Source: Octopus vulgaris
Lineage: Eukaryota
Reading direction: 5' to 3'
DNA: 64,000 nt
Assembly: GCA_951406725.2 (NCBI GenBank)
Contig: OX597843.1
Coordinates: forward strand, 3,348,001-3,412,000
Both the position numbers and the translations under genes were made by a program. The notes below the pieces were generated by a model. The model searched no databases. It was not told where the DNA came from and saw only the letters and a list, made by a program, of their open reading frames with translations. Shown in pieces: positions 1,080-42,227 of this stretch (positions are counted from its first letter, which is position 1; each line of letters starts with the position of its first letter).

Positions 1080-4000
1080 CTTAGCCAAGGCTTTGATTGT
1101 GCAATGTTAATTCTAAACTTACCCAATCACAACATGATGCAATGCTGTGTGACCTTTTTTGTCATCAAATTTATTGAATTCGTGTTACCCTGTTGATAGG
1201 CATTTTTAGATAAATTTCAGTATTTGAATTTATTTGCTGAATTCTTTCTGGACCTTTTTTTTTATATTTTTAATGCAATCTATCCAAGCTTCTAGTCAGA
1301 GTGGAATATTTCCCAAAACACACATTTTGCCCTCTCGGCCAAGGCTCTGATTTTGCAATGTTAATTCTAAACTTACCCAATCACACCATAATGGAAAGCT
1401 GTCTAACCATTTTTCTTTACCACTTTGAGATCATCTCCAAATTTTGTCATCAAATTTGGATGGATCTTGTCTTAATATCTGCTCCCTCTTTTAACATGTT
1501 TAAGACATCTATGTTGCCCTCTCAGCCAAGGCTTTGATTGTGCAATGTTAATTCTAAACTTACCTAATCACACCATAATGGAAAGCTGTCTAACCATTTT
1601 TGTTTACCACGTTGAGATCATCTCCAAATTTTGTCATCAACTTTGGATGGATCTTGTTTTAATATCTGCTCCCACTTTTAACATGTTTAAGACATATATG
1701 TTGCCCCGTTTACAAGCAGCCATGAGTTACGTTTCACCATTTTCATCTGTTTGGTGAATATCCACTGATATCTATTTTTCCAAGTACTGATTGCAGCCAC
1801 CCTTCATTTCTCTCCTCGTGTTGTGCACCATGATTACGGGGTTTCACCCACCTCTTTGTCTCCGATTTGGACACATGAAAACCCGTTCTACTTCTGACTG
1901 CTGTGGTGTCACACTTAGCTGTCTGCATTCATAATGGAATGTGGATCCCAGTAGGAGCAACGCTTCAGTTTGCCCTACCCTGACTGACATGTATCAAAGC
2001 ACTCTCTCAATGGGGCATGTTCATCCCCCTCAGCCAATGCTTTGATTGTGAAATGTTCATTCTAAACTGACCCAATCACAACATAATCTAAAGCTTTGAA
2101 TGCCTTGATAGATCTCGTTTTAATATCTGCTCCCTCCTTTAACATGTTTAAGACATCTATGTTGCCCTCTCGGCCAAGGCTTTGATTGTGCAATGTTAAT
2201 TCTAAACTTACCCAATCACAGCACCATGTAAAGCTGTCTAACCACAGACGTCTTTTGTTTTAATATCTGATCCCTCTTTTAACATGTTTAGGACATCTAT
2301 GTTGCCCTCTCGGCCAAGGCTTTGATTGTCCAATGTTAATTCTAAACTTACCCAATCACAACACAATGTAAAGCTGTCTAACCACAGACGTCTTTTGTTT
2401 TAATATCTGCTCCCTCTTTTAACATGTTTAGGACATTTATGTTGCCCTCTCGGCCAAGGCTTTGATTGTCCAATGTTAATTCTAAACTCACCCAATCACA
2501 ACACAATGTAAAGCTGTCTAACCACAGACGTCTTTTGTTTTAATATCTGCTCCCTCTTTTAACATGTTTAAGACATCTATGTGGATCTCAGTAGGAGCTA
2601 CACTTCAGTTTGCCCTACCCTGATTGACGTGTATCAAAGCACTCTCTGAATGGGGCACATTCATCCCCCCTCAGCCAAGGCTTTGATTGTGCAATGTTAA
2701 TTCTAAGCTTACCCAATCACAACACAATGTAAAGCTATCTAACCATTTTTATTTACCACGTTGAGATCATCTCCAAATTTTGTCATCAAATTTGGATGGA
2801 TCTTGTCTTAATATCTGCTCCCACTTTTAACATGTTTAAGACATCTATGTTGCCCTCTCGGCCAAGGCTTTGATTGTCCAATGTTAATTCTAAACTTACC
2901 CAATCACAGCACCATGTAAAGCTGTCTAACCACAGACGTCTTTTGTTTTAATATCTGATCCCTCTTTTAACATGTTTAAGACATCTATGTTGCCCTCTCG
3001 GCCAAGGCTTTGATTGTCCAATGTTAATTCTAAACTTACCCAATCACAGCACCATGTAAAGCTATCTAACCATTTTTATTTACCACGTTGAGATCATCTC
3101 CAAATTTTGTCATCAAATTTGGATGGATCTTGTCTTAATATCTGCTCCCACTTTTAACATGTTTAAGACATCTATGTTGCCCTCTCGGCCAAGGCTTTGA
3201 TTGTCCAATGTTAATTCTAAACTTACCCAATCACAGCACCATGTAAAGCTGTCTAACCACAGACGTCTTTTGTTTTAATATCTGATCCCTCTTTTAACAT
3301 GTTTAAGACATCTATGTTGCCCTCTCGGCCAAGGCTTTGATTGTCCAATGTTAATTCTAAACTTACCCAATCACAACACAATGTAAAGCTGTCTAACCAC
3401 AGATGTCTTTTGTTTTAATATCTGCTCCCTCTTTTAACATGTTTAAGACATCTATGTGGATCTCAGTAGGAGCTACACTTCAGTTTGCCCTACCCTGATT
3501 GACGTGTATCAAAGCACTCTCTGAATGGGGCACATTCATCCCCCCTCAGCCAAGGCTTTGATTGTGCAATGTTAATTCTAAACTTACCCAATCACAACAC
3601 AATGTAAAGCTATCTAACCATTTTTATTTACCACGTTGAGATCATCTCCAAATTTTGTCATCAAATTTGGATGGATCTTGTCTTAATATCTGCTCCCACT
3701 TTTAACATGTTTAAGACATCTATGTTGCCCCATTTACAAGCCGCCATGAGTTACGTTTCACCATTTTCATCTGTTTGGTGAATATTCACTGATATCTATT
3801 TTTCCAAGTACTGATTGCAGCCACCCTTCATTTCTCCCCTTGTGTTGTGCACCATGATTACGGGGTTTCACCCACCCCTTTGTCTCCAATTTGGACACAT
3901 GAAAACCCCTTCTACTTCCGACTTCTGTGGTGTCACACTTGGCTGTCTCCATTCCTAATGGAATGTGGATCTCAGTAGGAGCAACTTTCCAGTTTGCCCT

Positions 4001-7000
4001 ACCCTGACTGACATGTATCAAAACACTCTCTCAATGGGGCATGTTCATCCCCCTCAGCCAATGCTTTGATTGTGCAATGTTCATTCTAAACTTACCCAAT
4101 CACAGCATGATGTAAAGCTGTCTAACCCTTTTTGTCTCTCGTTTTAATATCTGCTCCCTCTTTTAACATGTTGCAGACATCTATGTTGCCCTCTCGGCCA
4201 AGGCTTTGATTGTGCAATGTTAATTCTAAACTTACCCAATCACAGCATAATGGAAAGCTGTCTAACAATTTTTGTTTACCACTTTGAGATCATCTCCAAA
4301 TTTTGTCATCAAATTTGGATGGATCTTGTCTTAATATCTGCTCCCACTTTTAACATGTTTAAGACATATATGTTGCCCTCTCGGCCAAGGCTTTGATTGT
4401 GCAATGTTAATTCTAAACTTACCCAATCACAGCATAATGGAAAGCTGTCTAACAATTTTTGTTTACCACGTTGAGATCATCTCCAAATTTTGTCATCAAC
4501 TTTGGATGGATCTTGTCTTAATATCTGCTCCCACTTTTAACATGTTTAAGACATCTATGTTGCCCTCTCGGCCAAGGCTTTGATTGTGCAATATTAATTC
4601 TAAACTTACCCAATCACAGCACCATGTAAAGCTGTCTAACCCTTTTTGTCTCTTGTTTTAATATCTGCTCCCTCTTTTAACATGTTGCAGACATCTATGT
4701 TGCCCTCTCGGCCAAGGCTTTGATTGTGCAATATTAATTCTAAACTTACCCAATCACAGCACCATGTAAAGCTGTCTAACCCTTTTTGTCTCTCGTTTTA
4801 ATATCTGCTCCCTCTTTTAACATGTTGCAGACATCTATGTTGCCCTCTCGGCCAAGGCTTTGATTGTGCAATGTTAATTCTAAACTTACCCAATCACAGC
4901 ATAATGGAAAGCTGTCTAACAATTTTTCTTTACCACTTTGAGATCATCTCCAAATTTTGTCATCAAATTTGGATGGATCTTGTCTTAATATCTGCTCCAA
5001 CTTTTAACATGTTTAAGACATCTATGTTGCCCTCTCGGCTAAGGCTTTGATTGTGCAATGTTAATTCTAAACTTACCCAATCACAGCACCATGTAAAGCT
5101 GTCTAACCCTTTTTGTCTCTCGTTTTAATATCTGCTCCCTCTTTTAACATGTTGCAGACATCTATGTTGCCCTCTCGGCCAAGGCTTTGATTGTGCAATG
5201 TTAATTCTAAACTTACCCAATCACAGCATAATGGAAAGCTGTCTAACAATTTTTCTTTACCACTTTGAGATCATCTCCAAATTTTGTCATCAAATTTGGA
5301 TGGATCTTGTCTTAATATCTGCTCCCACTTTTAACATGTTTAAGACATCTATGTTGCCCTCTCGGCCAAGGCTTTGATTGTGCAATGTTAATTCTAAACT
5401 TACCCAATCACAGCACCATGTAAAGCTGTATAACCCTTGTTGGATTTTGTTTTAATATCTGCTCCCTCTTTTAACATGTTTAAGACATCTATGTTGCCCT
5501 CTCGGCCAAGGCTTTGATTGTGCAATGTTAATTCTAAACTTACCCAATCACAGCATATTGGAAAGCTGTCTAACAATTTTTGTTTACCACTTTGAGATCA
5601 TCTCCAAATTTTGTCATCAAATTTGGATGGATCTTGTCTTAATATCTGCTCCCAGTTTTAACATGTTTAAGACATCTATGTTGCCCTCTCGGCCAAGGCT
5701 TTGATTGTGCAATGTTAATTCTAAACTTACCCAATCACAACACAATGTAAAGCTGTCTAACCATTTTTATTTACCACGTTGAGATCATCTCCAAATTTTG
5801 TCATCAAATTTGGATGGATCTTGTCTTAATATCTGCTCCCACTTTTAACATGTTTAAGACATCTATGTTGCCCCATTTACAAGCCGCCATGAGTTACGTT
5901 TCACCATTTTCATCTGTTTGGTGAATATTCACTGATATCTATTTTTCCAAGTACTGATTGCAGCCACCCTTCATTTCTCCCCTTGTGTTGTGCACCATGA
6001 TTACGGGGTTTCACCCACCCCTTTGTCTCCAATTTGGACACATGAAAACCCCTTCTACTTCCGACTTCTGTGGTGTCACACTTGGCTGTCTCCATTCCTA
6101 ATGGAATGTGGATCTCAGTAGGAGCAACTTTCCAGTTTGCCCTACCCTGACTGACATGTATCAAAGCACTCTCTCAATGGGGCATGTTCATCCCCCTCAG
6201 CCAATGCTTTGATTGTGCAATGTTCATTCTAAACTTACCCAATCACAGCATGATGTAAAGCTGTCTAACCCTTTTTGTCTCTCGTTTTAATATCTGCTCC
6301 CTCTTTTAACATGTTGCAGACATCTATGTTGCCCTCTCGGCCAAGGCTTTGATTGTGCAATGTTAATTCTAAACTTACCCAATCACAGCATAATGGAAAG
6401 CTGTCTAACAATTTTTGTTTACCACTTTGAGATCATCTCCAAATTTTGTCATCAAATTTGGATGGATCTTGTCTTAATATCTGCTCCCACTTTTAACATG
6501 TTTAAGACATCTATGTTGCCCTCTCGGCCAAGGCTTTGATTGTGCAATGTTAATTCTAAACTTACCCAATCACAGCATAATGGAAAGCTGTCTAACAATT
6601 TTTGTTTACCACTTTGAGATCATCTCCAAATTTTGTCATCAAATTTGGATGGATCTTGTCTTAATATCTGCTCCCACTTTTAACATGTTTAAGACATATA
6701 TGTTGCCCTCTCGGCCAAGGCTTTGATTGTGCAATGTTAATTCTAAACTTACCCAATCACAGCATAATGGAAAGCTGTCTAACAATTTTTGTTTACCACT
6801 TTGAGATCATCTCCAAATTTTGTCATCAAATTTGGATGGATCTTGTCTTAATATCTGCTCCCACTTTTAACATGTTTAAGACATCTATGTTGCCCTCTCG
6901 GCCAAGGCTTTGATTGTGCAATATTAATTCTAAACTTACCCAATCACAGCACCATGTAAAGCTGTCTAACCCTTTTTGTCTCTTGTTTTAATATCTGCTC

Positions 7001-9890
7001 CCTCTTTTAACATGTTGCAGACATCTATGTTGCCCTCTCGGCCAAGGCTTTGATTGTGCAATATTAATTCTAAACTTACCCAATCACAGCACCATGTAAA
7101 GCTGTCTAACCCTTTTTGTCTCTCGTTTTAATATCTGCTCCCTCTTTTAACATGTTGCAGACATCTATGTTGCCCTCTCGGCCAAGGCTTTGATTGTGCA
7201 ATGTTAATTCTAAACTTACCCAATCACAGCATAATGGAAAGCTGTCTAACAATCTTTCTTTACCACTTTGAGATCATCTCCAAATTTTGTCATCAAATTT
7301 GGATGGATCTTGTCTTAATATCTGCTCCCACTTTTAACATGTTTAAGACATCTATGTTGCCCTCTCGGCTAAGGCTTTGATTGTGCAATGTTAATTCTAA
7401 ACTTACCCAATCACAGCACCATGTAAAGCTGTCTAACCCTTTTTGTCTCTCGTTTTAATATCTGCTCCCTCTTTTAACATGTTGCAGACATCTATGTTGC
7501 CCTCTCGGCCAAGGCTTTGATTGTGCAATGTTAATTCTAAACTTACCCAATCACAGCATAATGGAAAGCTGTCTAATAATTTTTGTTTACCACGTTGAGA
7601 TCATCTCCAAATTTTGTCATCAAATTTGGATGGATCTTGTCTTAATATCTGCTCCCACTTTTAACATGTTTAAGACATCTATGTTGCCCTCTCGGCCAAG
7701 GCTTTGATTGTGCAATGTTAATTCTAAACTTACCCAATCACAGCATAATGGAAAGCTGTCTAACAATTTTTCTTTACCACTTTGAGATCATCTCCAAATT
7801 TTGTCATCAAATTTGGATGGATCTTGTCTTAATATCTGCTCCCACTTTTAACATGTTTAAGACATCTATGTTGCCCTCTCGGCCAAGGCTTTGATTGTGC
7901 AATGTTAATTCTAAACTTACCCAATTACAGCACCATGTAAAGCTGTCTAACCCTTTTTGTCTCTCGTTTTAATATCTGCTCCCTCTTCTAACATGTTGCA
8001 GACATCTATGTTGCCCTCTCGGCCAAGGCTTTGACTGTGCAATGTTAATTCTAAACTTACCCAATCACAGCATAATGGAAAGCTGTCTAACAATTTTTGT
8101 TTACCACTTTGAGATCATCTCCAAATTTTGTCATCAAATTTGGATGGATCTTGTCTTAATATCTGCTCCCAGTTTTAACATGTTTAAGACATCTATGTTG
8201 CCCTCTCGGCCAAGGCTTTGATTGTGCAATGTTAATTCTAAACTTACCCAATCACAGCATAATGGAAAGCTGTCTAACAATTTTTCTTTACCACTTTGAG
8301 ATCATCTCCAAATTTTGTCATCAAATCTGGATGGATCTTGTCTTAATATCTGCTCCCACTTTTAACATGTTTAAGACATCTATGTTGCCCTCTCGGCCAA
8401 GGCTTTGATTGTGCAATGTTAATTCTAAACTTACCCAATCACAGCATAATGGAAAGCTGTCTAACAATTTTTCTTTACCACTTTGAGATCATCTCCAAAT
8501 TTTGTCATCAAATTTGGATGGATCTTGTCTTAATATCTGCTCCCACTTTTAACATGTTTAAGACATCTATGTTGCCCTCTCGGCCAAGGCTTTGATTGTG
8601 CAATGTTAATTCTAAACTTACCCAATCACAGCACCATGTAAAGCTGTCTAACCCTTTTTGTCTCTCGTTTTAATATCTGCTCCCTCTTCTAACATGTTGC
8701 AGACATCTATGTTGCCCTCTCGGCCAAGGCTTTGATTGTGCAATGTTAATTCTAAACTTACCCAATCACAGCATAATGGAAAGCTGTCTAACAATTTTTG
8801 TTTACCACGTTGAGATCATCTCCAAATTTTGTCATCAAATTTGGATGGATCTTGTCTTAATATCTGCTCCCACTTTTAACATGTTTAAGACATCTATGTT
8901 GCCCTCTCGGCCAAGGCTTTGATTGTGCAATGTTAATTCTAAACTTACCCAATCACAGCATAATGGAAAGCTGTCTAACAATTTTTGTTTACCACGTTGA
9001 GATCATCTCCAAATTTTGTCATCAAATTTGGATGGATCTTGTCTTAATATCTGCTCCCACTTTTAACATGTTTAAGACATCTATGTTGCCCTCTCGGCCA
9101 AGGCTTTGATTGTGCAATGTTAATTCTAAACTTACCCAATCACAGCATAATGGAAAGCTGTCTAACAATTTTTGTTTACCACTTTGAGATCATCTCCAAA
9201 TTTTGTCATCAAATTTGGATGGATCTTGTCTTAATATCTGCTCCCACTTTTAACATGTTTAAGACATCTATGTTGCCCTCTCAGCCAAGGCTTTGATTGT
9301 GCAATGTTAATTCTAAACTTACCCAATCACAGCATAATGGAAAGCTGTCTAACAATTTTTGTTTACCACTTTGAGATCATTTCCAAATTTTGTCATCAAA
9401 TTTAGATGGATCTTGTCTTAATATCTGCTCCCACTTTTAACATGTTTAAGACATCTATGTTGCCCTCTCGGCCAAGGCTTTGATTGTGCAATGTTAATTC
9501 TAAACTTACCCAATCACAGCATAATGGAAAGCTGTCTAACAATTTTTGTTTACCACTTTGAGATCATCTCCAAATTTTGTCATCAAATTTGGATGGATCT
9601 TGTCTTAATATCTGCTCCCACTTTTAACATGTTTAAGACATCTATGTTGCCCTCTCGGCCAAGGCTTTGATTGTGCAATGTTAATTCTAAACTTACCCAA
9701 TCACAGCATAATGGAAAGCTGTCTAACAATTTTTCTTTACCACTTTGAGATCATCTCCAAATTTTGTCATCAAATTTGGATGGATCTTGTCTTAATATCT
9801 GCTCCCACTTTTAACATGTTTAAGACATCTATGTTGCCCCATTTACAAGTAGCCATGAGTTACGTTTCACCATTTTCATCTGTTTGGTGA
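1080..9890 (-). repeat. Satellite array 1: 140-bp and 187-bp monomers derived from an ankyrin-repeat exon plus its splice donor
   Basis: Period 140 (gttgccctctcggcc at 2161/2301/2441) and 187 (tgccctc at 6517/6704/6891). The minus strand reads GNIDVLNMLKEGADIKTKDVCG*TALHGAVIG then gtaagtttagaattaac. The long form adds LMTKFGDDLKVVNKNC*TAFHYAVIG. Confidence 0.9.
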
Positions 9891-10199: not shown

Positions 10200-10640
10200 T
10201 TTAGCATACAGGCAAACGTGGAGGTCCTGTGCGCTATGTCTGTGTAATGCAACCCGAGCCCTCCTGAGGCTGTCTGAAGAGCATGAGGGCTTCAATGCGC
10301 AGAAACGGGCCTGCTTGAGGGCTTCATTGTTGGTGGTGTCCTCCTTCCAAGGAGATGAACTCTGTGATGGAGCAAAGGCATCTGTGGTGGACGTGCTCCT
10401 GCATCTGACTTGCTTCCTGTACAGCAACCAAACGTCTGACCCCGTAAAGAAATGATGACAACCACGTTGTGGACCGTGGTTCTACAGGGCACTTGCAGTG
10501 GATGACTCTACCGTACGCACATCTGGAGAGGTCCAAAGGAGGTGTGGATTTTAGCAATGACGTAACACTGTATCCCCAGGTGTGTCTCTCGTTTACGTCA
10601 ACTCCAACTCCTATCGACAGGTGTGTTACGTCTGTGTTAC
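10200..10640 (-). mobile_element. Degenerate RTE-clade LINE reverse-transcriptase C-terminal fragment
   Basis: Frameshifted minus-strand peptides VHNVVVIISL, LLYRKQVR, HHRCLCSI and WKEDTTNNEALKQA match the RTE pattern VYRAVV..LLYG.ETW.LYRKQ...FHQRCLRSI..W....TN.EVL. Confidence 0.7.
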
Positions 10641-11598
10641 CCTGCTAACCAGTACTCATCAGGTAAGTTTACTCTGTGAATTTCTTTGGATAATTTTCTC
10701 TACACTTGAATTAATTTTTTCCTCATTTTCTTTCTTTTTATGCAATCGACCCAAACTTCTGATCAGAAAGGAATACTTCCCTAGCCACACCTTCTGCACT
10801 GGACAGCCCAGCAAAGAGACTGTTCAAACACACTCCTTCTTGGTGTGACATCATTTCCCCTTCCTTTTGGTCCACTCATTTTATTTAATTTTATTTAATT
10901 CTACTCTTATCCAATCACAACATATGTAAAGCTGTATAATCATTTGAATTTATTTGGTTAAAGAAATCTCCACCGGCACCTAACATCGTCTTTATTAGTT
11001 CTATGTTACCTTGCTAACAAGAGGTCACCATGAGAGTTTGACCATTTGAAGATGTTTCGTTGATTTTATTAGGATGTAATTTGCGTCTGGTTCCCTCAAT
11101 CCACATTACCCGATTCATTTCTTCACGTGACACCACCCCAGGTCTAAAGATCACTGCTCCTCTCCTTGGGTGGCCAATGTTCCCTTTGTTATCTTCGCAG
11201 GATCACAGGGCTGGTCTCTCCCTCAGCTTTTTCATCAGTGGCGCTAACCACCATCCAAACACACGATACGTGAACTGGCATGCATTATGGGGCTTCACCC
11301 ATTCTTGCCCTCTTATCTGAACAGATTTAACCCCTTCTAAATCTGACTGCTGTGGGGCCAAACATGGATGTCTCCATTTATACTGGAATGCTTCAGAGGG
11401 CAGATTCATCCCCACTAAGTCATGGTTTTGGTTGTGCGATGGTGTCATTCCACAATTCTATTTCTACTGGGTCTGTATGCAGCTCTTAAGAAATCTCCAC
11501 CGGAATCTAACATTGTCTTACCAGTCAATTGAAGACAAGTTGATGGCTTGATTATCATGAAGAATGCATACTTCTGTAATAGAATCTGCATCACGTCA

Positions 11599-12395
11599 TC
11601 ACCAATTCTGTTGCTGGATGCTTGTATCCCTGGAGATTACATCAGGGTAGGAGAGTGTGCACCCTCTAGTATCGTGCGTAGATGGCTTCCAGCGGAGAAG
11701 AGTAGAAATTACTTCGTTTTCAGCTCTACAATAATGTCCAGCAAACTGGACTCTCCTACCTTTCACAAGAGATGACACAGGTGGTAGTTTCCCATCTATT
11801 TGTACTTTGGTTGGATGACTCTTCCACGAGAGATTTTGAGCTCTCATAAGGAGGCGAGTGTAGGTTCAATCGAACCGCCTCTCAAGCTTCTTTGATAACG
11901 TCCAGGTTTCTGAGCCATATAGTAGAATTGGTTCGACTGTGGCTTTGAAGATTTTAAGTTTGAAATCTCAACAACCCTGCAACCTATGGCTCTGAGATGA
12001 TACTGGTGGTAGTTTTCCATATATTTGTACTTTGGTTGGATGACTCTTCCACGAGAGATTTTGAGCTCTCATAAGGAGGCGAGTGTAGGTTCCATCCAAC
12101 CACCTCTCAAGCTTCTTTGATAACGTCCAGGTTTCTGAGCCATATAGTAGAATTGGTTCGACTGTGGCTTTGAAGATTTTAAGTTTGAAATCTCAACAAC
12201 CCTGCAACCTATGGCTCTGAGATGATACTGGTGGTAGTTTTCCATATATTTGTACTTTGGTTGGATGACGCTTCCACGAGAGATTTTGAGCTCTCATAAG
12301 GAGGCGAGTGTAGGTTCCATCCAACCGCCTCTCAAGCTTCTTTGATAACGTCCAGGTTTCTGAGCCATATAGTAGAATTGGTTCGACTGTGGCTT
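11599..12395 (-). mobile_element. LINE (RTE/RTE-X-like) RT C-terminal fragment, partly triplicated as a 225-bp tandem unit
   Basis: Minus strand KIFKATVEPILLYGSETWTLSKKLERR...RLLMRAQNLSWKSHPTK...RRVQFAGHYCRAENEVISTLLRWKP. The unit start ggtggtagttt occurs at 11780, 12005 and 12230. Confidence 0.85.
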
Positions 12396-12647
12396 GGTGT
12401 TAAGAGGCTATTTCTTTTTCCAATTTTTGGAGCGTATACTGGTTAGAAGGATGTCGTGAGCTGGTGTTGATCACATTCAGATATTTATCTGCCATCGATA
12501 CGGGAGCTAGTAAGGGGACCCCGACATTCATCATGTTCGGGTGGGGCTTTTTCCATGCCATATCTTTGAATATTTCACCAGGCAAGAATTGGATGGAATT
12601 CAGAAACAAACTCAGATCTGGAGATTTTAGTCAATTCTAAACTTAAC

Positions 12648-13549: not shown

Positions 13550-13680
13550 ACCCAATCATGGCATCATTGAAAGCTGTAGGAGCAATTTTGTCACTCATGT
13601 TGAAATCAACTCCAACCCCTTTCTACAAGTTTGTTAAAACTGTGTCGCCCTGTTTACAAGCCTTTCTAACATTAAAGGAG
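13550..13680 (-). pseudogene. 3' half of the ankyrin exon from which the 51/49-bp satellite expanded
   Basis: Minus strand ACKQGDTVLTNL*KGVGVDFNMSDKIAPTAFNDAMIG|gtagggtcagaattaactaaaatc. Confidence 0.75.
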
Positions 13681-19369: not shown

Positions 19370-22300
19370 TAAACTTACCCAATCACAGCATGATGTAAAG
19401 CTGTCTAACCCTTTTTGTCTCTTGTTTTAATATCTGCCCCCTCTTTTAACATGTTTAAGACATCTATGTTGCCCTCTCAGCCAAGGCTTTGATTGTGCAA
19501 TGTTCATTCTAAACTTACCCAATCACAACACAATGTAAAGCTGTCTAACCATTTTTATTTACCACGTCGAGATCATCTCCAAATTTTGTCATCAAATTTG
19601 GATGGATCTTGTCTTAATATCTGCTCCCTCTTTTAACATGTTTAAGACATCTATGTTGCCCTCTCGGCCAAGGCTTTGATTGTGCAAATGTTAATTCTAA
19701 ACTTACCCAATCACAACACAATGTAAAGCTGTCTAACCATTTTTATTTACCACGTCGAGATCATCTCCAAATTTTGTCATCAAATTTGGATGGATCTTGT
19801 CTTAATATCTGGTCCCACTTTTAACATGTTTAAGACATATATGTTGCACCGTTTACAAGCAGCCATGAGTTACGTTTCACCATTTTCATCTGATATCTAT
19901 TTTTCCAAGTACTGATTGCAGCCACCCTTCATTTCTCCCCTTGTGTTGTGCACCATGATTACGGGGTTTCACCCACCCCTTTGTCTCCAATTTGGACACA
20001 TGAAAACCCCTTCTACTTCTGACTGCTGTGGTGTCACACTTGGGTGACCCCATTCCTAATGGAATGTGGATCTCAGTAGGAGCAACACTTCAGTTTGCCC
20101 TACCCTGACTGACATGTATCAAAGCACTCTCTCAATGGGGCACGCTCATCTCCTCTCAGCCAAGGCTATGATTGTGCAATGTTAATTCTAAACTTACCCA
20201 ATCACAACATGATGCAATGCTGTGTGACCTTTTTTGTCATGAAATCTATTGAATTCGTGTTACCCTGTTAACAGGCATTTTTAGATAAATTTCAGTATTT
20301 GAATTTATTTATTGAATCCTTTGAGGACCCTTTTTTTTTTCTTTTTTTCCTATTATGCAATCTGTCTAAGCTCCTGGTCAGAAAGGAATACATCCCTAGC
20401 CACACCTTCTGCACTGGACAGCCCAGCAAAGAGACTGTTTAAACACACTGCTTCTTGGTGTGACATCATTTCCCCTTGCGTCTGGTTCCCTCAATCCACA
20501 TTACCCGCTTCATTTCTTCTCGTGACCCCATCCCAGATATGAAGATCACTGTTCCTCTATTCTGTTTTGAAATCGTCCAAGCCAGTGGGTGGCCAATTTT
20601 TCCCTTTTTGATATTTGAAGGGTCACAGGGCTGGTGTCTACCTCTCCTTCGTCACCAGCGGTGCTAACCACCCTCAGAACCCCCGATATGTGACATGGCA
20701 TTCCTCCCACCAATTTCTATTTTCCGCAGACTGATCGCAGACACCCTTCATTTCTCTCTATGTGTTGTGCGACATGAATTAGGGGGCTTCACCCACCCCT
20801 TTGTCTCCGATCTGGAGAGATGCAACCCCTTCTACAACTGACCGATGTCGTGTCACACTTGTCTGCATTCATTCTGGGATGTGGATCTCAGTCGGAGCAA
20901 CTTTCCAGTTTGCCCTACCCTGACTGACATGTATCAATAGACTGTCTCAATGGGGCACATTCATCCCCTTTCAGCCAAGGCTTTGATTGTGCAATGTTAA
21001 TTCTAAACTTATCCAATCACAACATGATGCAAAGCTGTCTAACCATAGACGTCTTTTGTTTTAATATCTGCTCCCTCTTTTAACAGGTTTAAGACATCTA
21101 TGTTGCCCCCTCAGCCAAGGCTTTGATTGTGCAATGTTCATCCTAAACTTACCCAATCACACCATAATGGAAAGCTGTCTAACCCTTGTTAGATTGTGTT
21201 TTAATATATGCCCCCTCTTTTAACATGTTTAAGACATCTATGTTGCCCCCTCAGCCAAGGCTTTGATTGTCCAATGTTCATTCTAAACTTACCCAATCAC
21301 AGCATAATGGAAAGCTGTCTAACCCTTGTTAGATTGTGTTTTAATATATGCCCCCTCTTTTAACAGGTTTAAGACATCTATGTTGCCCCCTCAGCCAAGG
21401 CTTTGATTGTCCAATGTTCATTCTAAACTTACCCAATCACAGCATAATGGAAAGCTGTCTAACCCTTGTTAGATTGTGTTTTAATATATGCCCCCTCTTT
21501 TAACATGTTTAAGACATCTATGTTGCCCCCTCAGCCAAGGCTTTGATTGTCCAATGTTCATTCTAAACTTACCCAATCACAGCATAATGGAAAGCTGTCT
21601 AACCCTTGTTAGATTGTGTTTTAATATATGCCCCCTCTTTTAACAGGTTTAAGACATCTATGTTGCCCCCTCAGCCAAGGCTTTGATTGTCCAATGTTCA
21701 TTCTAAACTTACCCAATCACAGCATAATGGAAAGCTGTCTAACCCTTGTTAGATTGTGTTTTAATATATGCCCCCTCTTTTAACATGTTTAAGACATCTA
21801 TGTTGCCCCCTCAGCCAAGGCTTTGATTGTCCAATGTTCATTCTAAACTTACCCAATCACACCATAATGGAAAGCTGTCTAACCCTTGTTAGATTGTGTT
21901 TTAATATATGCCCCCTCTTTTAACATGTTTAAGACATCTATGTTGCCCTCTCAGCCAAGGCTTTGATTGTGCAATGTTCATCCTAAACTTACCCAATCAC
22001 AGCATAATGGAAAGCTGTCTAACCCTTGTTAGATTGTGTTTTAATATATGCCCCCTCTTTTAACATGTTTAAGACATCTATGTTGCCCCCTCAGCCAAGG
22101 CTTTGATTGTGCAATGTTCATCCTAAACTTACCCAATCACACCATAATGGAAAGCTGTCTAACCCTTGTTAGATTGTGTTTTAATATATGCCCCCTCTTT
22201 TAACATGTTTAAGACATCTATGTTGCCCCCTCAGCCAAGGCTTTGATTGTGCAATGTTCATTCTAAACTTACCCAATCACACCATAATGGAAAGCTGTCT

Positions 22301-25300
22301 AACCCTTGTTAGATTGTGTTTTAATATCTGCTCCCTCTTTTAACATGTTTAAGACATCTATGTTGCCCTCTCAGCCAAGGCTTTGATTGTGCAATGTTAA
22401 GTCTAAACTTACCCAATCACAGCACAATGTAAAGCTGTATAACCCTTTGTGTCTCTTGTTTTAATATCTGCTCCCACTTTTAACATGTTTAAGACATCTA
22501 TGTGGATCTCAGTAGGAGCAACACTTCAGTTTGCCCTACCCTGATTGACATGTATCAAAGCACTCTCTGAATGGGGCATGTTCATCCCCTTCAGCCAAGG
22601 CTTTGATTGTGCAATGTTCATTCTAAACTTACCCAATCACACCATAATGGAAAGCTGTTTAACCCTCATTAGTTCGTGTCTTAATATCTGCTCCCTCTTT
22701 TAACATGTTTAAGACATCTATGTTGCCCTCTCAGCCAAGGCTTTGATTGTGCAATGTTCATTCTAAACTTACCCAATCGCAACATGATGTAAAGCTGTCC
22801 GACCCTTGTTGGATTTTGTTCTCATATCTGCTCCCTCTTTTAACATGTTTATAACATCTATGTTGCCCCCTCAGCCAAGGCTTTGATTGTGCAATGTTAA
22901 TTCTAAACTTACCCAATCACAACATGATGCATTGCTGTGTGACCTTTTTTGTCATGAAATTTATTGAATTCGTGTTACCCTGTCAACAGGCATCGTTAGA
23001 TATATTCCAGTATTTGAATTTATTTATTGAATCCTTTGAGGACCCTACTTTTTTTCTTTTGCATGCAATCTGTCCAAGCTCCTGGTCAGAAAGGAATACA
23101 TCCCTAGCCACACCTTCTGCACTGGACAGCCCAGCAAAGAGACTGTTTAAACACACTGCTTCTTGGTGTGACATCATTTCCCCTTGCGTCTGGTTCCCTC
23201 AATCATCACATTACCCGCTGAATTTCTTCTCGTGACCCCACCCCAGATATGAAGATCAGTGCTCCTCTATTCTGTTTTGAAATTGTCCAAGCCAGTGGGT
23301 GGCCAATTTTCCCTTTTGATCTTTGTAGGGTCACAGGACTGGTGTCTACCTCTCCTTCGTCACCAGCGGTGCTAACCACCCTCAGAACCCCCGATATGTG
23401 ACATGGCATTCCTCCCACCAATTTCTATTTTCCGCAGACTGATCGCAGACACCCTTCATTTCTCTCTATGTGTTGTGCGACATGTATTAGGGGCTTCACC
23501 CACCCCTTTGTCTCCGATCTGGAGAGATGCAACCCCTTCTACAACTGACCGATGTCGTGTCACACTTGTCTGCATTCATTCTGGGATGTGGATCTCAGTC
23601 GGAGCAACTTTCCAGTTTGCCCTACCCTGACTGACATGTATCAATAGACTGTCTCAGTGGGGCACATTCATCCCCTTTCAGCCAAGGCTTTGATTGTGCA
23701 ATGTTAATTCTAAACTTACCCAATCACAACATGATGCAAAGCTGTCTAACCATAGACGTCTTTTGTTTTAATATCTGCTCCCTCTTTTAACAGGTTTAAG
23801 ACATCTATGTTGCCCTGTTTACAAGATGCCATGAGTAATGTTTCACCATTTTCATCTGTTTGGTGAATATCCACTGATATCTATTTTTCCTATACTGATT
23901 GCAGTCACCCTTCATTTCTCCCCTTGTGTTGTTGCACCAAGCGTTACGGGGTTTCACCCACCCTTTTGTCTCCAATCTAGACAGACCAAAACCCTTTCTA
24001 ATTCTGACTGCTGTGGTGTCTCACTTGGGTGACCCCATTCATAAAGGAATGTGGATCTCAGTAGGAGCAACACTTCAGTTTGCTCTTCCCTGATTGAAGT
24101 GTATCAAAGCACTCTCTCAATGGGGCACATTCATCCCCTCTCAGCCAAGGCTTTGATTGTGCAATGTTAATTCTAAACTTACCCAATCACAACATGATGC
24201 AAAGCTGTATGACCCTTACTGTCATGAAATTTATTGAATTCGTGTTACCCTGTTAACAAGCATCATTAGATAAGTTTCAGTATTTGAATTTATTTGCTGA
24301 ATTCCTTCAGGACCCTTCCTAACGCCAACCACTCCGTGAGTGTAGTGGGTGCTTTTACGTGATATTTACATGCATTAGGGGGCTTCACCCACCCCTTTGT
24401 CTCCGATCTGGAGAGATGCAACCCCTTCTACATCTGACTGATGTCATGTCACACTTGTCTGCATTCATTCTGGGATGTGGATCTCAGTCGGAGCAACTTT
24501 CCAGTTTGCCCTACCCTGACTGACATGTATCAATAGACTGTCTCAATGGGGCACATTCATCCCCTTTCAGCCAAGGCTTTGATTGTGCAATGTTAATTCT
24601 AAACTTACCCAATCACAACATGATGCAAAGCTGTCTAACCATAGACGTCTTTTGTTTTAATATCTGCTCCCTCTTTTAACAGGTTTAAGACATATATGTT
24701 GCCCTCTCGGCCAAGGCTTTGATTGTGCAATGTTCATTCTAAACTTACCCAATCACAGCACAATGTAAAGCTGTATAACCCTTTGTGTCTCTTGTTTTAA
24801 TATCTGCTCCCTCTTTTAACATGTTTAAGACCTCTATGTGGATCTCAGTCGGAGCAACACTTCAGTTTGCCCTACCCTGACTGACATGTATCAAAGCACT
24901 CTCTCAATGGGGCATGTTCATCCCCCTCAGCCAAGGCTTTGATTGTGCAATGTTCATTCTAAACTCACCCGATCACAGCATGATATAAAGCTGTATAACC
25001 CTTGTTGGATTTTGTTTTAATATCTGCTCCCTCTTTTAACATGTTTAAGACATCTATGTTGCCCTCTCAGCCAAGGCTTTGATTGAGCAATGTTAATTCT
25101 AAACTTACCCAATCACAGCACAATGTAAAGCTGTATAACCCTTTGTGTCTCTTGTTTTAATATCTGCTCCCTCTTTTAACATGTTTAAGACATCTATGTT
25201 GCCCCCTCAGCCAAGGCTTTGATTGTGCAATGTTCATTCTAAACTTACCCAATCACACCAAAATGGAAAGCTGTCTAACCCTTGTTAGATTGTTTTAATA

Positions 25301-28300
25301 TCTGCTCCCTCTTTTAACATGTTTAAGACATCTATGTTGCCCTCTCAGCCAAGGCTTTGATTGAGCAATGTTAATTCTAAACTTACCCAATCACAGCATA
25401 ATGGAAAGCTGTCTAACCCTTGTTAGATTGTGTTTTAATACATGCTCCCTCTTTTAACATGTTTAAGACATCTATGTTGCCCTCTCAGCCAAGGCTTTGA
25501 TTGTCCAATGTTCATTCTAAACTTACCCAATCACACCATAATGGAAAGCTGTCTAACCCTTGTTAGATTGTGTTTTAATATATGCCCCCTCTTTTAACAT
25601 GTTTAAGACACCTATGTTGCCCTTTCAGCCAAGGCTTTGATTGAGCAATGTTCATTCTAAACTTACCCAATCACACCATAATGGAAAGCTGTCTAACCCT
25701 TGTTAGTTTGTGTTTTAATACATGCTCCCTCTTTTAACATGTTTAAGACATCTATGTTGCCCTCTCAGCCAAGGCTTTGATTGTGCAATGTTCATCCTAA
25801 ACTTACCCAATCACACCATAATGGAAAGCTGTCTAACCCTTGTTAGATTGTGTTTTAATATATGCCCCCTCTTTTAACATGTTTAAGACATCTATGTTGC
25901 CCTCTCAGCCAAGGCTTTGATTGTGCAATGTTAATTCTAAACTTACCCAATCACAACATGATGCAAAGCTGTCTAACCATAGACGTCTTTTGTTTTAATA
26001 TCTGCTCCCTCTTTTAACAGGTTTAAGACATATATGTTGCCCTCTCAGCCAAGGCTTTGATTGTGCAATGTTAATTCTAAACTTACCCAATCACAACATG
26101 ATGCAAAGCTGTCTAACCATAGACGTCTTTTGTTTTAATATCTGCTCCCTCTTTTAACATGTTTAAGACATCTATGTTGCCCTCTCAGCCAAGGCTTTGA
26201 TTGTGCAATGTTAATTCTAAACTTACCCAATCACAACATGATGCAAAGCTGTCTTACCATAGACGTCTTTTGTTTTAATATCTGCTCCCTCTTTTAACAG
26301 GTTTAAGACATATATGTTGCCCTCTCAGCCAAGGCTTTGATTGTGCAATGTTAATTCTAAACTTACCCAATCACAACATGATGCAAAGCTGTCTAACCAT
26401 AGACGTCTTTTGTTTTAATATCTGCTCCCTCTTTTAACAGGTTTAAGACATATATGTTGCCCTCTCAGCCAAGGCTTTGATTGTGCAATGTTAATTCTAA
26501 ACTTACCCAATCACAACATGATGCAAAGCTGTCTAACCATAGACGTCTTTTGTTTTAATATCTGCTCCCTCTTTTAACAGGTTTAAGACATATATGTTGC
26601 CCTCTCAGCCAAGGCTTTGATTGTGCAATGTTAATTCTAAACTTACCCAATCACAACATGATGCAAAGCTGTCTAACCATAGACGTCTTTTGTTTTAATA
26701 TCTGCTCCCTCTTTTAACAGGTTTAAGACATATATGTTGCCCTCTCAGCCAAGGCTTTGATTGTGCAATGTTAATTCTAAACTTACCCAATCACAACATG
26801 ATGCAAAGCTGTCTAACCATAGACGTCTTTTGTTTTAATATCTGCTCCCTCTTTTAACAGGTTTAAGACATCTATGTTGCCCTCTCAGCCAAGGCTTTGA
26901 TTGTGCAATGTTAATTCTAAACTTACCCAATCACAACATGATGCAAAGCTGTCTAACCATAGACGTCTTTTGTTTTAATATCTGCTCCCTCTTTTAACAG
27001 GTTTAAGACATATATGTTGCCCTCTCAGCCAAGGCTTTGATTGTGCAATGTTAATTCTAAACTTACCCAATCACAACATGATGCAAAGCTGTCTAACCAT
27101 AGACGTCTTTTGTTTTAATATCTGCTCCCTCTTTTAACAGGTTTAAGACATATATGTTGCCCTCTCAGCCAAGGCTTTGATTGTGCAATGTTAATTCTAA
27201 ACTTACCCAATCACAACATGATGCAAAGCTGTCTAACCATAGACGTCTTTTGTTTTAATATCTGCTCCCTCTTTTAACAGGTTTAAGACATATATGTTGC
27301 CCTCTCAGCCAAGGCTTTGATTGTGCAATGTTAATTCTAAACTTACCCAATCACAACATGATGCAAAGCTGTCTAACCATAGACGTCTTTTGTTTTAATA
27401 TCTGCTCCCTCTTTTAACAGGTTTAAGACATATATGTTGCCCTCTCAGCCAAGGCTTTGATTGTGCAATGTTCATTCTAAACTTACCCAATCGCAACATG
27501 ATGTAAAGCTGTCCGACCCTTGTTGGATTTTGTTCTCATATCTGCTCCCTCTTTTAACATGTTTATAACATCTATGTTGCCCCCTCAGCCAAGGCTTTGA
27601 TTGTGCAATGTTAATTCTAAACTTACCCAATCACAACATGATGCATTGCTGTGTGACCTTTTTTGTCATGAAATTTATTGAATTCGTGTTACCCTGTCAA
27701 CAGGCATCGTTAGATAGATTCCAGTATTTGAATTTATTTATTGAATCCTTTGAGGACCCTTTTTTTTTTCTTTTGCATGCAATCTGTCCAAGCTCCTGGT
27801 CAGAAAGGAATACATCCCTAGCCACACCTTCTGCACTGGACAGCCCAGCAAAGAGACTGTTTAAACACACTGCTTCTTGGTGTGACATCATTTCCCCTTG
27901 CATCTGGTTCCCTCAATCCACATTACCCGCTTCATTTCTTCTCGTGACCCCACCCCAGATATGAAGATCAGTGCTCCTCTATTCTGTTTTGAAATTGTCC
28001 AAGCCAGTGGGTGGCCAATTTTCCCTTTTTGATCTTTGTAGGGTCACAGGACTGGTGTCTACCTCTCCTTCGTCACCAGCGGTGCTAACCACCCTCAGAA
28101 CCCCCGATATGTGACATGGCATTCCTCCCACCAATTTCTATTTTCCGCAGACTGATCGCAGACACCCTTCATTTCTCTCTATGTGTTGTGCGACATGCAT
28201 TAGGGGGCTTCACCCACCCCTTTGTCTCCGATCTGGAGAGATGCAACCCCTTCTACAACTGACCGATGTCGTGTCACACTTGTCTGCATTCATTCTGGGA

Positions 28301-31300
28301 TGTGGATCTCAGTCGGAGCAACTTTCCAGTTTGCCCTACCCTGACTGACATGTATCAATAGACTGTCTCAGTGGGGCACATTCATCCCCTTTCAGCCAAG
28401 GCTTTGATTGTGCAATGTTAATTCTAAACTTACCCAATCACAACATGATGCAAAGCTGTCTAACCATAGACGTCTTTTGTTTTAATATCTGCTCCCTCTT
28501 TTAACAGGTTTAAGACATCTATGTTGCCCTGTTTACAAGATGCCATGAGTAATGTTTCACCATTTTCATCTGTTTGGTGAATATCCACTGATATCTATTT
28601 TTCCTATACTGATTGCAGTCACCCTTCATTTCTCCCCTTGTGTTGTTGCACCAAGCGTTACGGGGTTTCACCCACCCTTTTGTCTCCAATCTAGACAGAC
28701 CAAAACCCTTTCTAATTCTGACTGCTGTGGTGTCTCACTTGGGTGACCCCATTCATAAAGGAATGTGGATCTCAGTAGGAGCAACACTTCAGTTTGCTCT
28801 TCCCTAATTGAAGTGTATCAAAGCACTCTCTCAATGGGGCACATTCATCCCCTCTCAGCCAAGGCTTTGATTGTGCAATGTTAATTCTAAACTTACCCAA
28901 TCACAACATGATGCAAAGCTGTATGACCCTTTCTGTCATGAAATTTATTGAATTTGTGTTACCCTGTTAACAAGCATCATTAGATAAGTTTCAGTATTTG
29001 AATTTATTTGCTGAATTCCTTCAGGACCCTTCCTAACGCCAACCACTCCGTGAGTGTAGTGGGTGCTTTTACGTGATATTTACGTGCATTAGGGGGCTTC
29101 ACCCACCCCTTTGTCTCCGATCTGGAGAGATGCAACCCCTTCTACATCTGACTGATGTCATGTCACACTTGTCTGCATTCATTCTGGGATGTGGATCTCA
29201 GTCGGAGCAACTTTCCAGTTTGCCCTACCCTGACTGACATGTATCAATAGACTGTCTCAATGGGGCACATTCATCCCCTTTCAGCCAAGGCTTTGATTGT
29301 GCAATGTTAATTCTAAACTTACCCAATCACAACATGATGCAAAGCTGTCTAACCATAGACGTCTTTTGTTTTAATATCTGCTCCCTCTTTTAACAGGTTT
29401 AAGACATATATGTTGCCCTCTCGGCCAAGGCTTTGATTGTGCAATGTTCATTCTAAACTTACCCAATCACAGCACAATGTAAAGCTGTATAACCCTTTGT
29501 GTCTCTTGTTTTAATATCTGCTCCCTCTTTTAACATGTTTAAGACCTCTATGTGGATCTCAGTCGGAGCAACACTTCAGTTTGCCCTACCCTGACTGACA
29601 TGTATCAAAGCACTCTCTCAATGGGGCATGTTCATCCCCCTCAGCCAAGGCTTTGATTGTGCAATGTTCATTCTAAACTCACCCGATCACAGCATGATAT
29701 AAAGCTGTATAACCCTTGTTGGATTTTGTTTTAATATCTGCTCCCTCTTTTAACATGTTTAAGACATCTATGTTGCCCCCTCAGCCAAGGCTTTGATTGT
29801 GCAATGTTCATTCTAAACTTACCCAATCACACCAAAATGGAAAGCTGTCTAACCCTTGTTAGATTGTGTTTTAATATCTGCTCCCTCTTTTAACATGTTT
29901 AAGACATCTATGTTGCCCTCTCAGCCAAGGCTTTGATTGAGCAATGTTAATTCTAAACTTACCCAATCACAGCATAATGGAAAGCTGTCTAACCCTTGTT
30001 AGATTGTGTTTTAATACATGCTCCCTCTTTTAACATGTTTAAGACATCTATGTTGCCCTCTCAGCCAAGGCTTTGATTGTCCAATGTTCATTCTAAACTT
30101 ACCCAATCACACCATAATGGAAAGCTGTCTAATCCTTGTTAGATTGTGTTTTAATATATGCCCCCTCTTTTAACATGTTTAAGACACCTATGTTGCCCTT
30201 TCAGCCAAGGCTTTGATTGAGCAATGTTCATTCTAAACTTACCCAATCACAGCATAATGGAAAGCTGTCTAACCCTTGTTAGATTGTGTTTTAATACATG
30301 CTCCCTCTTTTAACATGTTTAAGACATCTATGTTGCCCTCTCAGCCAAGGCTTTGATTGTCCAATGTTCATTCTAAACTTACCCAATCACACCATAATGG
30401 AAAGCTGTCTAACCCTTGTTAGATTGTGTTTTAATATATGCCCCCTCTTTTAACATGTTTAAGACACCTATGTTGCCCTTTCAGCCAAGGCTTTGATTGA
30501 GCAATGTTCATTCTAAACTTACCCAATCACAGCATAATGGAAAGCTGTCTAACCCTTGTTAGATTGTGTTTTAATACATGCTCCCTCTTTTAACATGTTT
30601 AAGACATCTATGTTGCCCTCTCAGCCAAGGCTTTGATTGTCCAATGTTCATTCTAAACTTACCCAATCACACCATAATGGAAAGCTGTCTAACCCTTGTT
30701 AGATTGTGTTTTAATATATGCCCCCTCTTTTAACATGTTTAAGACATCTATGTTGCCCCCTCAGCCAAGGCTTTGATTGTGCAATGTTCATTCTAAACTT
30801 ACCCAATCACACCATAATGGAAAGCTGTCTAACCCTTGTTGGTTCATGTTTTAATATATGCCCCTTCTTTTAACCAGTTTAAGACATCTATGTTGCCCTC
30901 TCAGCCAAGGCTTTGATTGTCCAATGTTCATTCTAAACTTACCCAATCACACCATAATGGAAAGCTGTCTAACCCTTGTTAGATTGTGTTTTAATACATG
31001 CTCCCTCTTTTAACATGTTTAAGACATCTATGTTGCCCTCTCAGCCAAGGCTTTGATTGAGCAATGTTAATTCTAAACTTACCCAATCACAGCATAATGG
31101 AAAGCTGTCTAACCCTTGTTAGATTGTGTTTTAATACATGCTCCCTCTTTTAACATGTTTAAGACATCTATGTTGCCCCCTCAGCCAAGGCTTTGATTGA
31201 GCAATGTTAATTCTAAACTTACCCAATCACAGCATAATGGAAAGCTGTCTAACCCTTGTTAGATTGTGTTTTAATACATGCTCCCTCTTTTAACATGTTT

Positions 31301-32560
31301 AAGACACCTATGTTGCCCTTTCAGCCAAGGCTTTGATTGAGCAATGTTCATTCTAAACTTACCCAATCACAGCATAATGGAAAGCTGTCTAACCCTTGTT
31401 AGATTGTGTTTTAATACATGCTCCCTCTTTTAACATGTTTAAGACATCTATGTTGCCCTCTCAGCCAAGGCTTTGATTGTCCAATGTTCATTCTAAACTT
31501 ACCCAATCACACCATAATGGAAAGCTGTCTAACCCTTGTTAGATTGTGTTTTAATATATGCCCCCTCTTTTAACATGTTTAAGACATCTATGTTGCCCCC
31601 TCAGCCAAGGCTTTGATTGTGCAATGTTCATTCTAAACTTACCCAATCACACCATAATGGAAAGCTGTCTAACCCTTGTTGGTTCATGTTTTAATATATG
31701 CCCCTTCTTTTAACCTGTTTAAGACATCTATGTTGCCCTCTCAGCCAAGGCTTTGATTGTCCAATGTTCATTCTAAACTTACCCAATCACACCATAATGG
31801 AAAGCTGTCTAACCCTTGTTAGATTGTGTTTTAATACATGCTCCCTCTTTTAACATGTTTAAGACATCTATGTTGCCCTCTCAGCCAAGGCTTTGATTGT
31901 GCAATGTTAATTCTAAACTTACCCAATCACAGCATAATGGAAAGCTGTCTAACCCTTGTTAGATTGTGTTTTAATACATGCTCCCTCTTTTAACATGTTT
32001 AAGACATCTATGTTGCCCTCTCAGCCAAGGCTTTGATTGAGCAATGTTAATTCTAAACTTACCCAATCACAGCATAATGGAAAGCTGTCTAACCCTTGTT
32101 AGATTGTCTTTTAATACATGCTCCCTCTTTTAACATGTTTAAGACATCTATGTTGCCCCCTCAGCCAAGGCTTTGATTGAGCAATGTTAATTCTAAACTT
32201 ACCCAATCACAGCATAATGGAAAGCTGTCTAACCCTTGTTAGATTGTGTTTTAATACATGCTCCCTCTTTTAACATGTTTAAGACATCTATGTTGCCCTC
32301 TCAGCCAAGGCATTGATTGAGCAATGTTCATTCTAAACTTACCCAATCACACCATAATGGAAAGCTGTCTAACCCTTGTTAGATTGTGTTTTAATATCTG
32401 CCCCCTTAGCCAAGGCTTTGATTGAGCAATGTTCATTCTAAACTTACCCAATCACAACATGATGTAATGCTGTATAACCATTTTTGTTGACCGTGTCGAC
32501 ATCATCTCCAAATTTTGTCATCAAATATATTGAATTTGTGTCACCCTGTTAACAGGCATA
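19370..32560 (-). repeat. Satellite array 3: 140-bp ankyrin-exon monomers in homogeneous sub-blocks with a ~4.7-kb higher-order duplication
   Basis: 140-bp period over 21.0-22.4, 25.9-27.4 and 29.8-32.4 kb. ORF pairs 22894/27608 and 23838/28552 are both offset by 4714 bp. Confidence 0.92.
20360..20960 (-). mobile_element. Interspersed segment co-amplified with the satellite, possibly a decayed Tx1/L1-type ORF1; related copies near 340-1080, 1750-2030, 3770-4060, 5910-6200, 10750-11400, 23060-23670, 27780-28380
   Basis: Recurrent diverged copies. The minus-strand fragments ETKGWVKPP, KQNRGTVIFISG and EEMKRVMWIEG look like eroded coding sequence. The family assignment is weak. Confidence 0.3.

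Positions 32561-42196: not shown

Positions 42197-42227
<31 letters not shown>

Follow-up and report, generated by a model that had tools for sequence, protein, structure and literature searches.

Tandem arrays of a host ankyrin exon fused to retrotransposon sequence at one locus of Octopus vulgaris

A window of 64,000 nucleotides from Octopus vulgaris (G000:C30:3348001-3412000, in an assembly of 2.8 Gb and 227 contigs; positions below count from its first base) contains tandem arrays, real and specific to this locus, whose monomers descend from a fusion of host exon and retrotransposon sequence. The exon encodes ankyrin sequence of what appears to be a Mind bomb-derived gene family, and the principal tandem unit joins part of it to the start of the following intron, with its splice donor, and to a piece of integrase. 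We consider it probable that the array is the dead remnant of a fusion between a MIB2-derived exon, its donor and a Gypsy-type long terminal repeat (LTR) retrotransposon, made when the reverse transcriptase (RT) of the element switched onto partly spliced transcripts, and that the fusion then multiplied locally. A sequence-only reading of the same DNA had proposed a satellite of ~30 kb seeded by a host exon. Its account of the 140/187-bp monomers, which on the minus strand translate as ankyrin sequence followed by a donor, was correct, as was the exon origin; the seed itself proved to be a fusion of exon, intron and integrase, one among at least six exon variants interspersed with Gypsy-type pieces.

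The region is an interrupted patchwork

Counting units with a 24-base anchor that crosses the exon end and the donor, we recovered 114 copies between 1107 and 32455, every one on the minus strand, in line with an earlier rough figure of ~100. The 113 spacings between anchors include 68 of 140 bp, 22 of 187 bp, one of 188 bp and one of 138 bp, the rest being linkers. These 92 monomers of 138-188 bp sum to 13,960 bp out of a 31.5-kb region, and their longest unbroken run is ~20. The continuous ~30-kb satellite first proposed thus gives way to an interrupted patchwork, which is not a homogeneous 30-kb satellite: 140/187-bp monomers fill only 14 kb, the stretch from 9.9 to 19.3 kb is occupied by other units, and a second exon-derived array, of 49/51-bp units, lies at 13670-18028. 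The patchwork is also longer than first thought, beginning ~1.5 kb left of the window (Table 1). By composition, 1080-32560 is 55.9% exon, 26.9% retrotransposon, 7.8% intron and 9.3% other sequence, so that the first three together make up ~91%.

The features of a satellite are present—monomers are tandem and head to tail, locally homogenised, and organised in higher-order repeats. The 140-mers have a mean pairwise identity of 90.6% (46 of 68 are distinct) and the 187-mers one of 97.9%, while higher-order duplications at offsets of 2143, 2330 and 4714 bp are 97-99% identical. The splice donor, which had been described for each monomer, is intact as GTAAGT in 105 of 114 units, and 93 of the 114 share one TAG stop in the exon frame. 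Alignment matches of exon, intron and retrotransposon pieces fall on the minus strand in 1140 of 1141 cases, a count for which most reference pieces were taken from the patchwork itself; an independent dispersed copy of the element, L024, likewise matches the window on the minus strand only.

That the patchwork is an artefact of assembly strikes us as extremely improbable. Near-identical tandems and 4.7-kb duplications are hard to assemble, and the copy number given here is an assembly count; yet the monomers are diverse, as just described, sister loci exist elsewhere in the genome, and the integrase/exon junction at 23868 is crossed, with no difference in 321 bases, by a contig from sequencing run X1, which shows that this junction was not created by this assembly.

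Monomers combine exon, intron and integrase

In each 140-mer, ankyrin exon accounts for 93 bp, intron for 17 bp and integrase for 30 bp. The monomer had been described as gene sequence, which fits its exon and intron parts and overlooks the ~30 bp of retrotransposon integrase. At the point of duplication of the 140-mer, exon and element have AGGG in common, and the full exon that lies between integrase pieces (23704-23868 and 28418-28582) is the unamplified template of this monomer. The 187-mer carries an additional 47 bp from another exon variant, B, and the 49/51-bp array, which matches Pfam Ank at E 1.1e-11, derives from the same ankyrin exon, namely its 5' half. Within the window, 94 matches to L024 begin at one identical L024 position; 77 of them are 32 bases long and lie inside monomers (84-88% identity), and the remaining 17 extend into long linkers.

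A linker query gave matches of 64-73% on many contigs, and eight dispersed loci that match linkers have up to ~2 kb in common. Single genomic copies of this element, translated with X used for read-through, match DUF7047 (E 4.9e-14), RVT_3 (E 1.7e-4) and rve (E 0.004, below the cut-off). An open stretch of 188 residues in one copy matches 11 pol proteins at 46-56% identity; the domains of these closest protein relatives run in the order protease, RT, RNase H, integrase, which is the Ty3/Gypsy arrangement. The two pol proteins that were compared with the window match its linkers directly, in the integrase region only. Judged by these relatives, the source of the linkers is a Ty3/Gypsy-type LTR retrotransposon. 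Past the integrase end, natural copies continue with a purine-rich tract and then a segment starting with TG, which we read as a putative 3' LTR and call LTR-like. The linkers were also tried as further ankyrin or RING exons, an idea we rejected: a six-frame scan found no ankyrin there, and the linkers match the dispersed element. Separately, a 225-bp triplication at 11769-12395, with diverged copies at 10250-10480 and 18300-18460 (all on the minus strand), reads like the RT C-terminus of a long interspersed nuclear element (LINE), without Pfam support.

Source of the exon

A full-exon copy (23707-23889, minus strand) matches Pfam Ank_2 at E 2.8e-8, above the cut-off, and aligns at 71% over 168 bp (E 2.4e-19) with positions 48172-48339, at an ankyrin exon of a neighbouring family gene. 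A single monomer gives a weak ankyrin match (E 0.03-0.04), and a six-frame Pfam scan of the patchwork reported ankyrin in variant B only. By these alignments the exon origin of the monomers is real and far beyond chance. The 48172 exon was considered as the parent and rejected: its identity is 71-72%, against 72-73% for paralogs on other contigs, and variant A, from which the 140-mer was seeded, has at least as close relatives in the copies L011 and L013 as in the family gene of the window.

A protein search of the genome with one intact exon returned 51 matches, mostly on C29 and C30; 45 exon copies were examined, and 6 further paralogs were found later. One copy on C26 (L058), with the same exon length and phase, lies 2-10 kb downstream of four matches to PF18346, the Mib SH3-repeat. 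All 18 PF18346 matches fall on C26 and C13 and none on C29 or C30 (40 candidates scored), and the source family therefore looks like an N-terminally truncated derivative of Mind bomb, which we take to be MIB2 rather than MIB1. Of two protein-database searches for the name of the family, one gave no match and the other generic ankyrin proteins only.

The family has histories of its own. Ankyrin genes that derive from Mind bomb and are truncated have expanded greatly, to ~50 exon copies, on C29 (12.8-30.2 Mb) and further contigs; these genes seem to be without Mib SH3 repeats, fuller paralogs are clustered on C26, and our literature search turned up no paper on this expansion. At L063:4863-7050 (G000:C9, ~53.803 Mb), a different ankyrin exon of a related gene forms a 328-bp tandem of 4.4 copies plus two diverged units; the amplified copies have kept the acceptor and lost the donor, and constitute a DNA-level exon array in the same family.

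One locus, with intermediates elsewhere

Copy mapping across the genome, which had been suggested earlier, found the array confined to one locus. In the 2.8-Gb assembly, 79 of 79 matches to the exact intron/integrase junction lie within C30:3346577-3380445, with 0 for a reversed control, which marks a small, locus-specific array rather than a multi-locus satellite. The 51-bp motif has 26 copies at this locus and 6 at C30:5.354 Mb. That second site, 2 Mb away, contains a single complete variant A, again with the TAG, along with variant D, ~100 bp of intron and seven of the 51-bp units; it is 94% identical to 18.8-19.5 kb of the window and is the pre-amplification state. As a candidate parent gene it was rejected, being a sister patchwork that carries the same TAG. 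Further relatives are found at C30:5.09 Mb and as a lone D unit (element plus exon) on C3 at 88%, and variants B and G were found at this locus only, the DNA searches giving lower bounds. Within the window, the copy at ~19340-19425, earlier taken to be non-amplified, does run on into the intron as described and is itself part of the patchwork. The sister patchwork at L002:781-4340 (G000:C30, ~5.355-5.358 Mb) also holds an inversion, with variants A and D and the 51-bp units on one strand and C and C2 on the other.

Exon variants and number of parents

The patchwork contains no fewer than six exon variants, all decayed (A, B, C/C2, D/E, F, G and H). They are 43-68% identical to one another and 61-73% to their best paralog, the latter range being 64-73% over whole variants; the monomers are ~72% identical to any family exon. 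Across six variants there is no third-position excess (ratio 1.05, versus 1.60 for intact paralogs; disjoint-pair tests, p 0.42-0.90), a pattern that favours one old capture, or a few, with neutral decay afterwards. Evidence against a single parent comes from a subfamily on C4/C6/C31: it matches the 3' half of C2 at 88%, where no other exceeds 74%, and is also the best fit for the 50-bp units. On this reading, two or more gene subfamilies contributed pieces, with the codon-position test favouring few parents. B, C and G have LTR-like flanks that agree at 94-98% and exons that agree at only 61-65%, which suggests that parts were swapped later or captured again at one site, a partial account of the discordance.

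Evidence for a probable RNA intermediate

A pyrimidine tract and an AG acceptor precede the exon in 42 of 45 exon copies—the three exceptions being L062 (a 3-base offset in the cut) and L060 and L063 (different ankyrin repeats)—and in 6 of the 6 later paralogs; no intron-less copy of this exon was found among the 51 examined. Two candidates for an intron-less paralog were rejected: C30:3316468, which has a 297-aa open frame, has a normal acceptor, and L060 on C20 is an internal repeat of another ankyrin exon. For ten patchwork copies, we compared the 12 bases before the exon start with the ends of upstream exons. Variant D matches at 11 of 12 positions (background P 0.0001), C at 10 (P 0.0005), B at 9 (P 0.003), and C2 and E at 8 each (P 0.024), whereas the same bases agree with intron ends at 4-6 of 12. 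In C2, the 120 bp before the exon align end to end with an upstream exon (P 0.016, 500 shuffles). In several variants the end of the upstream exon is thus fused on even though family genes keep the intron, which suggests an RNA intermediate. On the downstream side, every copy that extends to the end of the exon retains 17-100 bp of the intron that follows. Read in frame, the donor is itself a stop, and such family RNAs may therefore simply terminate within this intron.

The chimeric anatomy of the units and the ladder of intermediates can be read directly from the assembly, and for their origin we lean towards capture through RNA. In a first step, a Ty3/Gypsy-type RT would have switched onto partly spliced family transcripts that had lost the intron upstream of the exon and kept the start of the next, giving units in the order retrotransposon 3' end, upstream exon end, exon, intron start, integrase. 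These units would then have been duplicated, diverged over a long time and swapped parts, with copies reaching three places on C30 and one on C3. Finally, duplication between the AGGG of the exon and the AGGG of the integrase piece would have produced the 140-mer, a further join adding 47 bp the 187-mer, and an independent 51-bp duplication in the 5' half of the exon the second array, with unequal exchange generating sub-arrays and higher-order repeats of 2-5 kb. The products of the last two steps are present in the assembly and the route between them is the one we propose; local multiplication likely proceeded by recombination between short shared sequences.

A number of observations weigh against this origin. 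A search of the stretch between 20 kb left of the window and position 45 kb, and of the surroundings of the C3 copy, found no gag, RT or paired LTRs, although the age of the patchwork may have removed LTRs. The gene piece comes after the LTR-like part and before the integrase, rather than replacing an internal open reading frame (ORF) between paired LTRs, and the retained start of the downstream intron is atypical for a retrocopy. Variants A and G match upstream-exon ends at 5 of 12 bases and give no spliced-junction signal; the upstream alignment of C2 is not significant at the protein level (P 0.85), and neither are those of B, C and G over 50-70 bp (P 0.15-0.74). The junction evidence amounts to 12 bases for most variants and may trace to one ancestral event. 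The missing third-position excess speaks against many independent captures from diverged genes, and a variant tree (L063 left out, and built before the six later paralogs were fetched) leaves the parents unassigned. Bases that are shared or similar at capture junctions are seen by eye, in copies ~30% diverged, and the array is flanked by two divergently oriented family genes, as a DNA-level origin predicts.

Such an origin, in which an intron-less local paralog took Gypsy insertions and short-homology deletions and duplications scrambled both, is possible and in our view distinctly less probable. Besides the position of the locus, it would account for the retained downstream intron start, for variant divergence that looks neutral, as from one ancestor, and for paired LTRs not being found, and the 328-bp unit at L063 provides a case of DNA-level tandem exon duplication in another family gene. 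However, that case keeps its acceptor and the array has none (one monomer tested); the intron-less paralog it calls for is missing among the 51 copies; pieces match a subfamily located on other contigs; gene and element pieces all lie on one strand; and C3 carries a lone element-plus-exon unit. We think it unlikely that a LINE RT copied the transcript instead, switching among RNAs or inserting into a Gypsy remnant: pieces resembling an RT C-terminus lie on the same strand (10250-10480, 11770-12400, 18300-18460; by eye, no Pfam match), but the gene pieces are without a poly(A) tail and run straight into integrase at fixed points, and the flanking element pieces are not two halves of one interrupted copy.

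Comparison with known systems

The gene piece is flanked on both sides by discontinuous LTR-retrotransposon sequence on the same strand. As reported by Tan et al. 2016 (PMC5131818), LTR-mediated retrocopies are likewise partial, intron-lacking gene pieces between discontinuous LTR-element pieces, with more than one parent gene and with dispersed copies that have junctions in common; a recurrent switch site near an exon junction is reported for a Gypsy element (PMC5131818). Unlike these retrocopies (PMC5131818), the array retains one intron start with its donor, consists of old, dead copies and has had its junction turned into a short tandem monomer. Since paired LTRs were not found, we say that the array works like an LTR-mediated retrocopy and do not file it as a member of that class. 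By analogy, it would work like LTR retroposition by template switching (PMC5131818), followed by tandem-repeat birth from a Gypsy element (PMC3648361).

Among single systems, Pxyfem of Plutella xylostella (PMC9674220) comes closest; in it, tandem partial complementary DNA (cDNA) pieces are tied to LTR-retrotransposon ORF fragments, an arrangement explained by template switching. In EkMascW/EkMom of Ephestia (PMC12487030) as well, parts of a host gene's cDNA are present in multiple tandem copies. Both systems are W-linked, are highly similar to or match their target, and make silencing RNAs (PMC9674220, PMC12487030). Pxyfem comprises 11 copies in inverse orientation (PMC9674220); the octopus array, in contrast, has more than 100 short units, is sense to the element and is ~72% identical to the family. 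The CRM1TR/CRM4TR repeats of maize (PMC3648361), which originated by illegitimate recombination in a Ty3/Gypsy element, likewise occupy few loci, have monomer variants with internal add-ons and show local homogenisation, and other retrotransposon-derived tandem repeats are tabulated in PMC6947457. CRM1TR/CRM4TR derive wholly from LTR and untranslated region, whereas here the host supplies ~110 of 140 bp, as exon and intron, and the element contributes integrase coding sequence. The accessible part of a satellite review (PMC5615363) contains nothing on exon-derived monomers. In the literature within reach, which excluded most subscription papers, we found no report of a short monomer joining host exon, donor and integrase piece.

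Coding potential and regulation

Su(Ste) repeats of Drosophila are tandem and gene-derived and contain a transposon piece, as does the array; they have kilobase units where those of the array are short, are Y-linked, and have a proven role as PIWI-interacting RNA loci. The octopus array makes no protein. It contains no ankyrin reading frame of any length, its longest minus-strand open stretches (87-129 codons) lie in linkers or overlap at most one variant, and monomer variation is even across codon positions, with no third-position excess. No acceptor-like site was found in the monomer tested. No data set that contains the sequence is registered as RNA, and data sets labelled as two other organisms contain it at a word share of 0.38-0.40. 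Contigs over 22900-24600 come from three putative RNA runs and a putative DNA run; they speak neither for nor against transcription, and no joint in them has splice-site ends. Selection on the donor or on coding was considered and is not supported by monomer variation; conservation of the donor is unremarkable, with 21% of 9-column monomer windows varying as little. The array is probably non-functional.

That selection keeps it as a regulatory RNA locus, acting through small RNAs directed at the gene family or through dense 5' splice sites, seems to us improbable. Nearly all donors are intact (105 of 114), and LTR-captured tandem gene pieces yield silencing RNAs in a moth (PMC9674220); against this, the donor is not unusually conserved, the monomers are only ~72% identical to any family exon, and the array lies on the same strand as the element, so that element-driven transcripts would be sense, unlike those of the inverse Pxyfem copies. 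We likewise give little credence to a scenario in which a non-autonomous Gypsy derivative repeatedly took up the exon from various members of the growing family, by recombination of co-packaged RNAs, and its amplified remains now serve as regulatory RNA for the ~50-member family. If true, an RNA with ~100 5' splice sites and no acceptor, or a source of small RNAs, would regulate the MIB2-derived family.

Features of the window

The neighbouring family gene spans 43400-51190 on the plus strand, with exons near 46.3, 48.2, 49.1 and 51.0 kb. The exon that in paralogs lies between the counterparts of the 48172 and 49076 exons was not found there; with this exon missing and the exon phases mismatched, the gene is likely broken. 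Its last exon is cysteine-rich and RING-like by eye (Pfam not significant). In its last intron lies a Pif1-type helicase fragment (49700-50470, plus strand; Pfam Pif1_2B_dom, E 5.9e-15), probably of a Helitron; Helitron capture was rejected as a source of the array, the fragment showing no link to it. Just upstream of the gene's first exon, 41100-43300 is an irregular tandem of 132-340-bp units with AAT tracts. Tandems of 39 bp, 253 bp and 205/230 bp and a decayed stretch occupy 52659-53075, 53812-54365, 55300-56400 and 56597-57422, the decayed stretch being Penelope-type RT/endonuclease-like by eye, with no Pfam match. An open frame of 515 residues at 60745-62289 (minus strand) belongs to a C2H2 zinc-finger gene with an acidic tail.

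Table 1. Features of the patchwork and of the neighbouring family gene, in window positions
Feature	Position	Strand	Remarks
Whole exon/retrotransposon patchwork	1-32670	-	Extends ~1.5 kb left of the window (G000:C30 about 3346500-3380670)
86-bp tandem, 3 copies, from retrotransposon piece just beyond integrase end	456-713	-	
Long integrase-derived linker	632-1108	-	67-70% to L024; tblastn with pol relative P0005, E down to 9e-10
Similar linkers	1760-2057, 3784-4081, 5927-6224, 19892-20183, 20428-20998	-	
Similar linkers	23136-23705, 23869-24168, 27850-28419, 28583-28882	-	
Mixed 140/187-bp array	1327-9839	-	Higher-order duplications, offset 2143 and 2330 bp, 97-99% identical
Exon variants G and C with LTR-like flank	10560-11064	-	C: upstream exon end joined to exon start
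Exon variants D, E, H	12560-13690	-	Each with 40-100 bp intron and retrotransposon linkers
Second array, 43.5 dimers of 100 bp (49+51-bp units)	13670-18028	-	From exon 5' half
Least amplified module	18790-19480	-	Variant A 3' part, ~90 bp intron, retrotransposon piece, variant D
140-bp array	20971-22929	-	
Full-length exon variant A with 17 bp intron, integrase on both sides	23704-23868	-	Duplicate at 28418-28582
140-bp array	24562-27652	-	
Recent duplicate of 22897-25100	27611-29814	-	Offset 4714 bp, 99.4% identical
140-bp array	29276-32455	-	
Full exon variant B, upstream exon end fused on	32449-32610	-	5'-most patchwork unit
Upstream coding exon of neighbouring family gene	46303-46407 (start approximate)	+	One reference in the spliced-junction test
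Ankyrin exon of neighbouring family gene	48172-48323	+	71% paralog
Next ankyrin exon of neighbouring family gene	49076-49230	+	Out of phase with preceding exon

Implications

The birth of a satellite monomer is seldom traceable, because the seed is usually gone. Here a ladder is visible, leading from an intact gene family through single chimeric units on two contigs and a seven-unit seed 2 Mb away to sub-arrays and higher-order repeats, and each half of one exon gave rise, independently, to a monomer of its own. The small size of the array, its confinement to one locus and the lack of an indicated function limit the weight of the case. It nevertheless ties LTR-mediated gene capture to the birth of a satellite, and both can be compared at the orthologous locus across related species.

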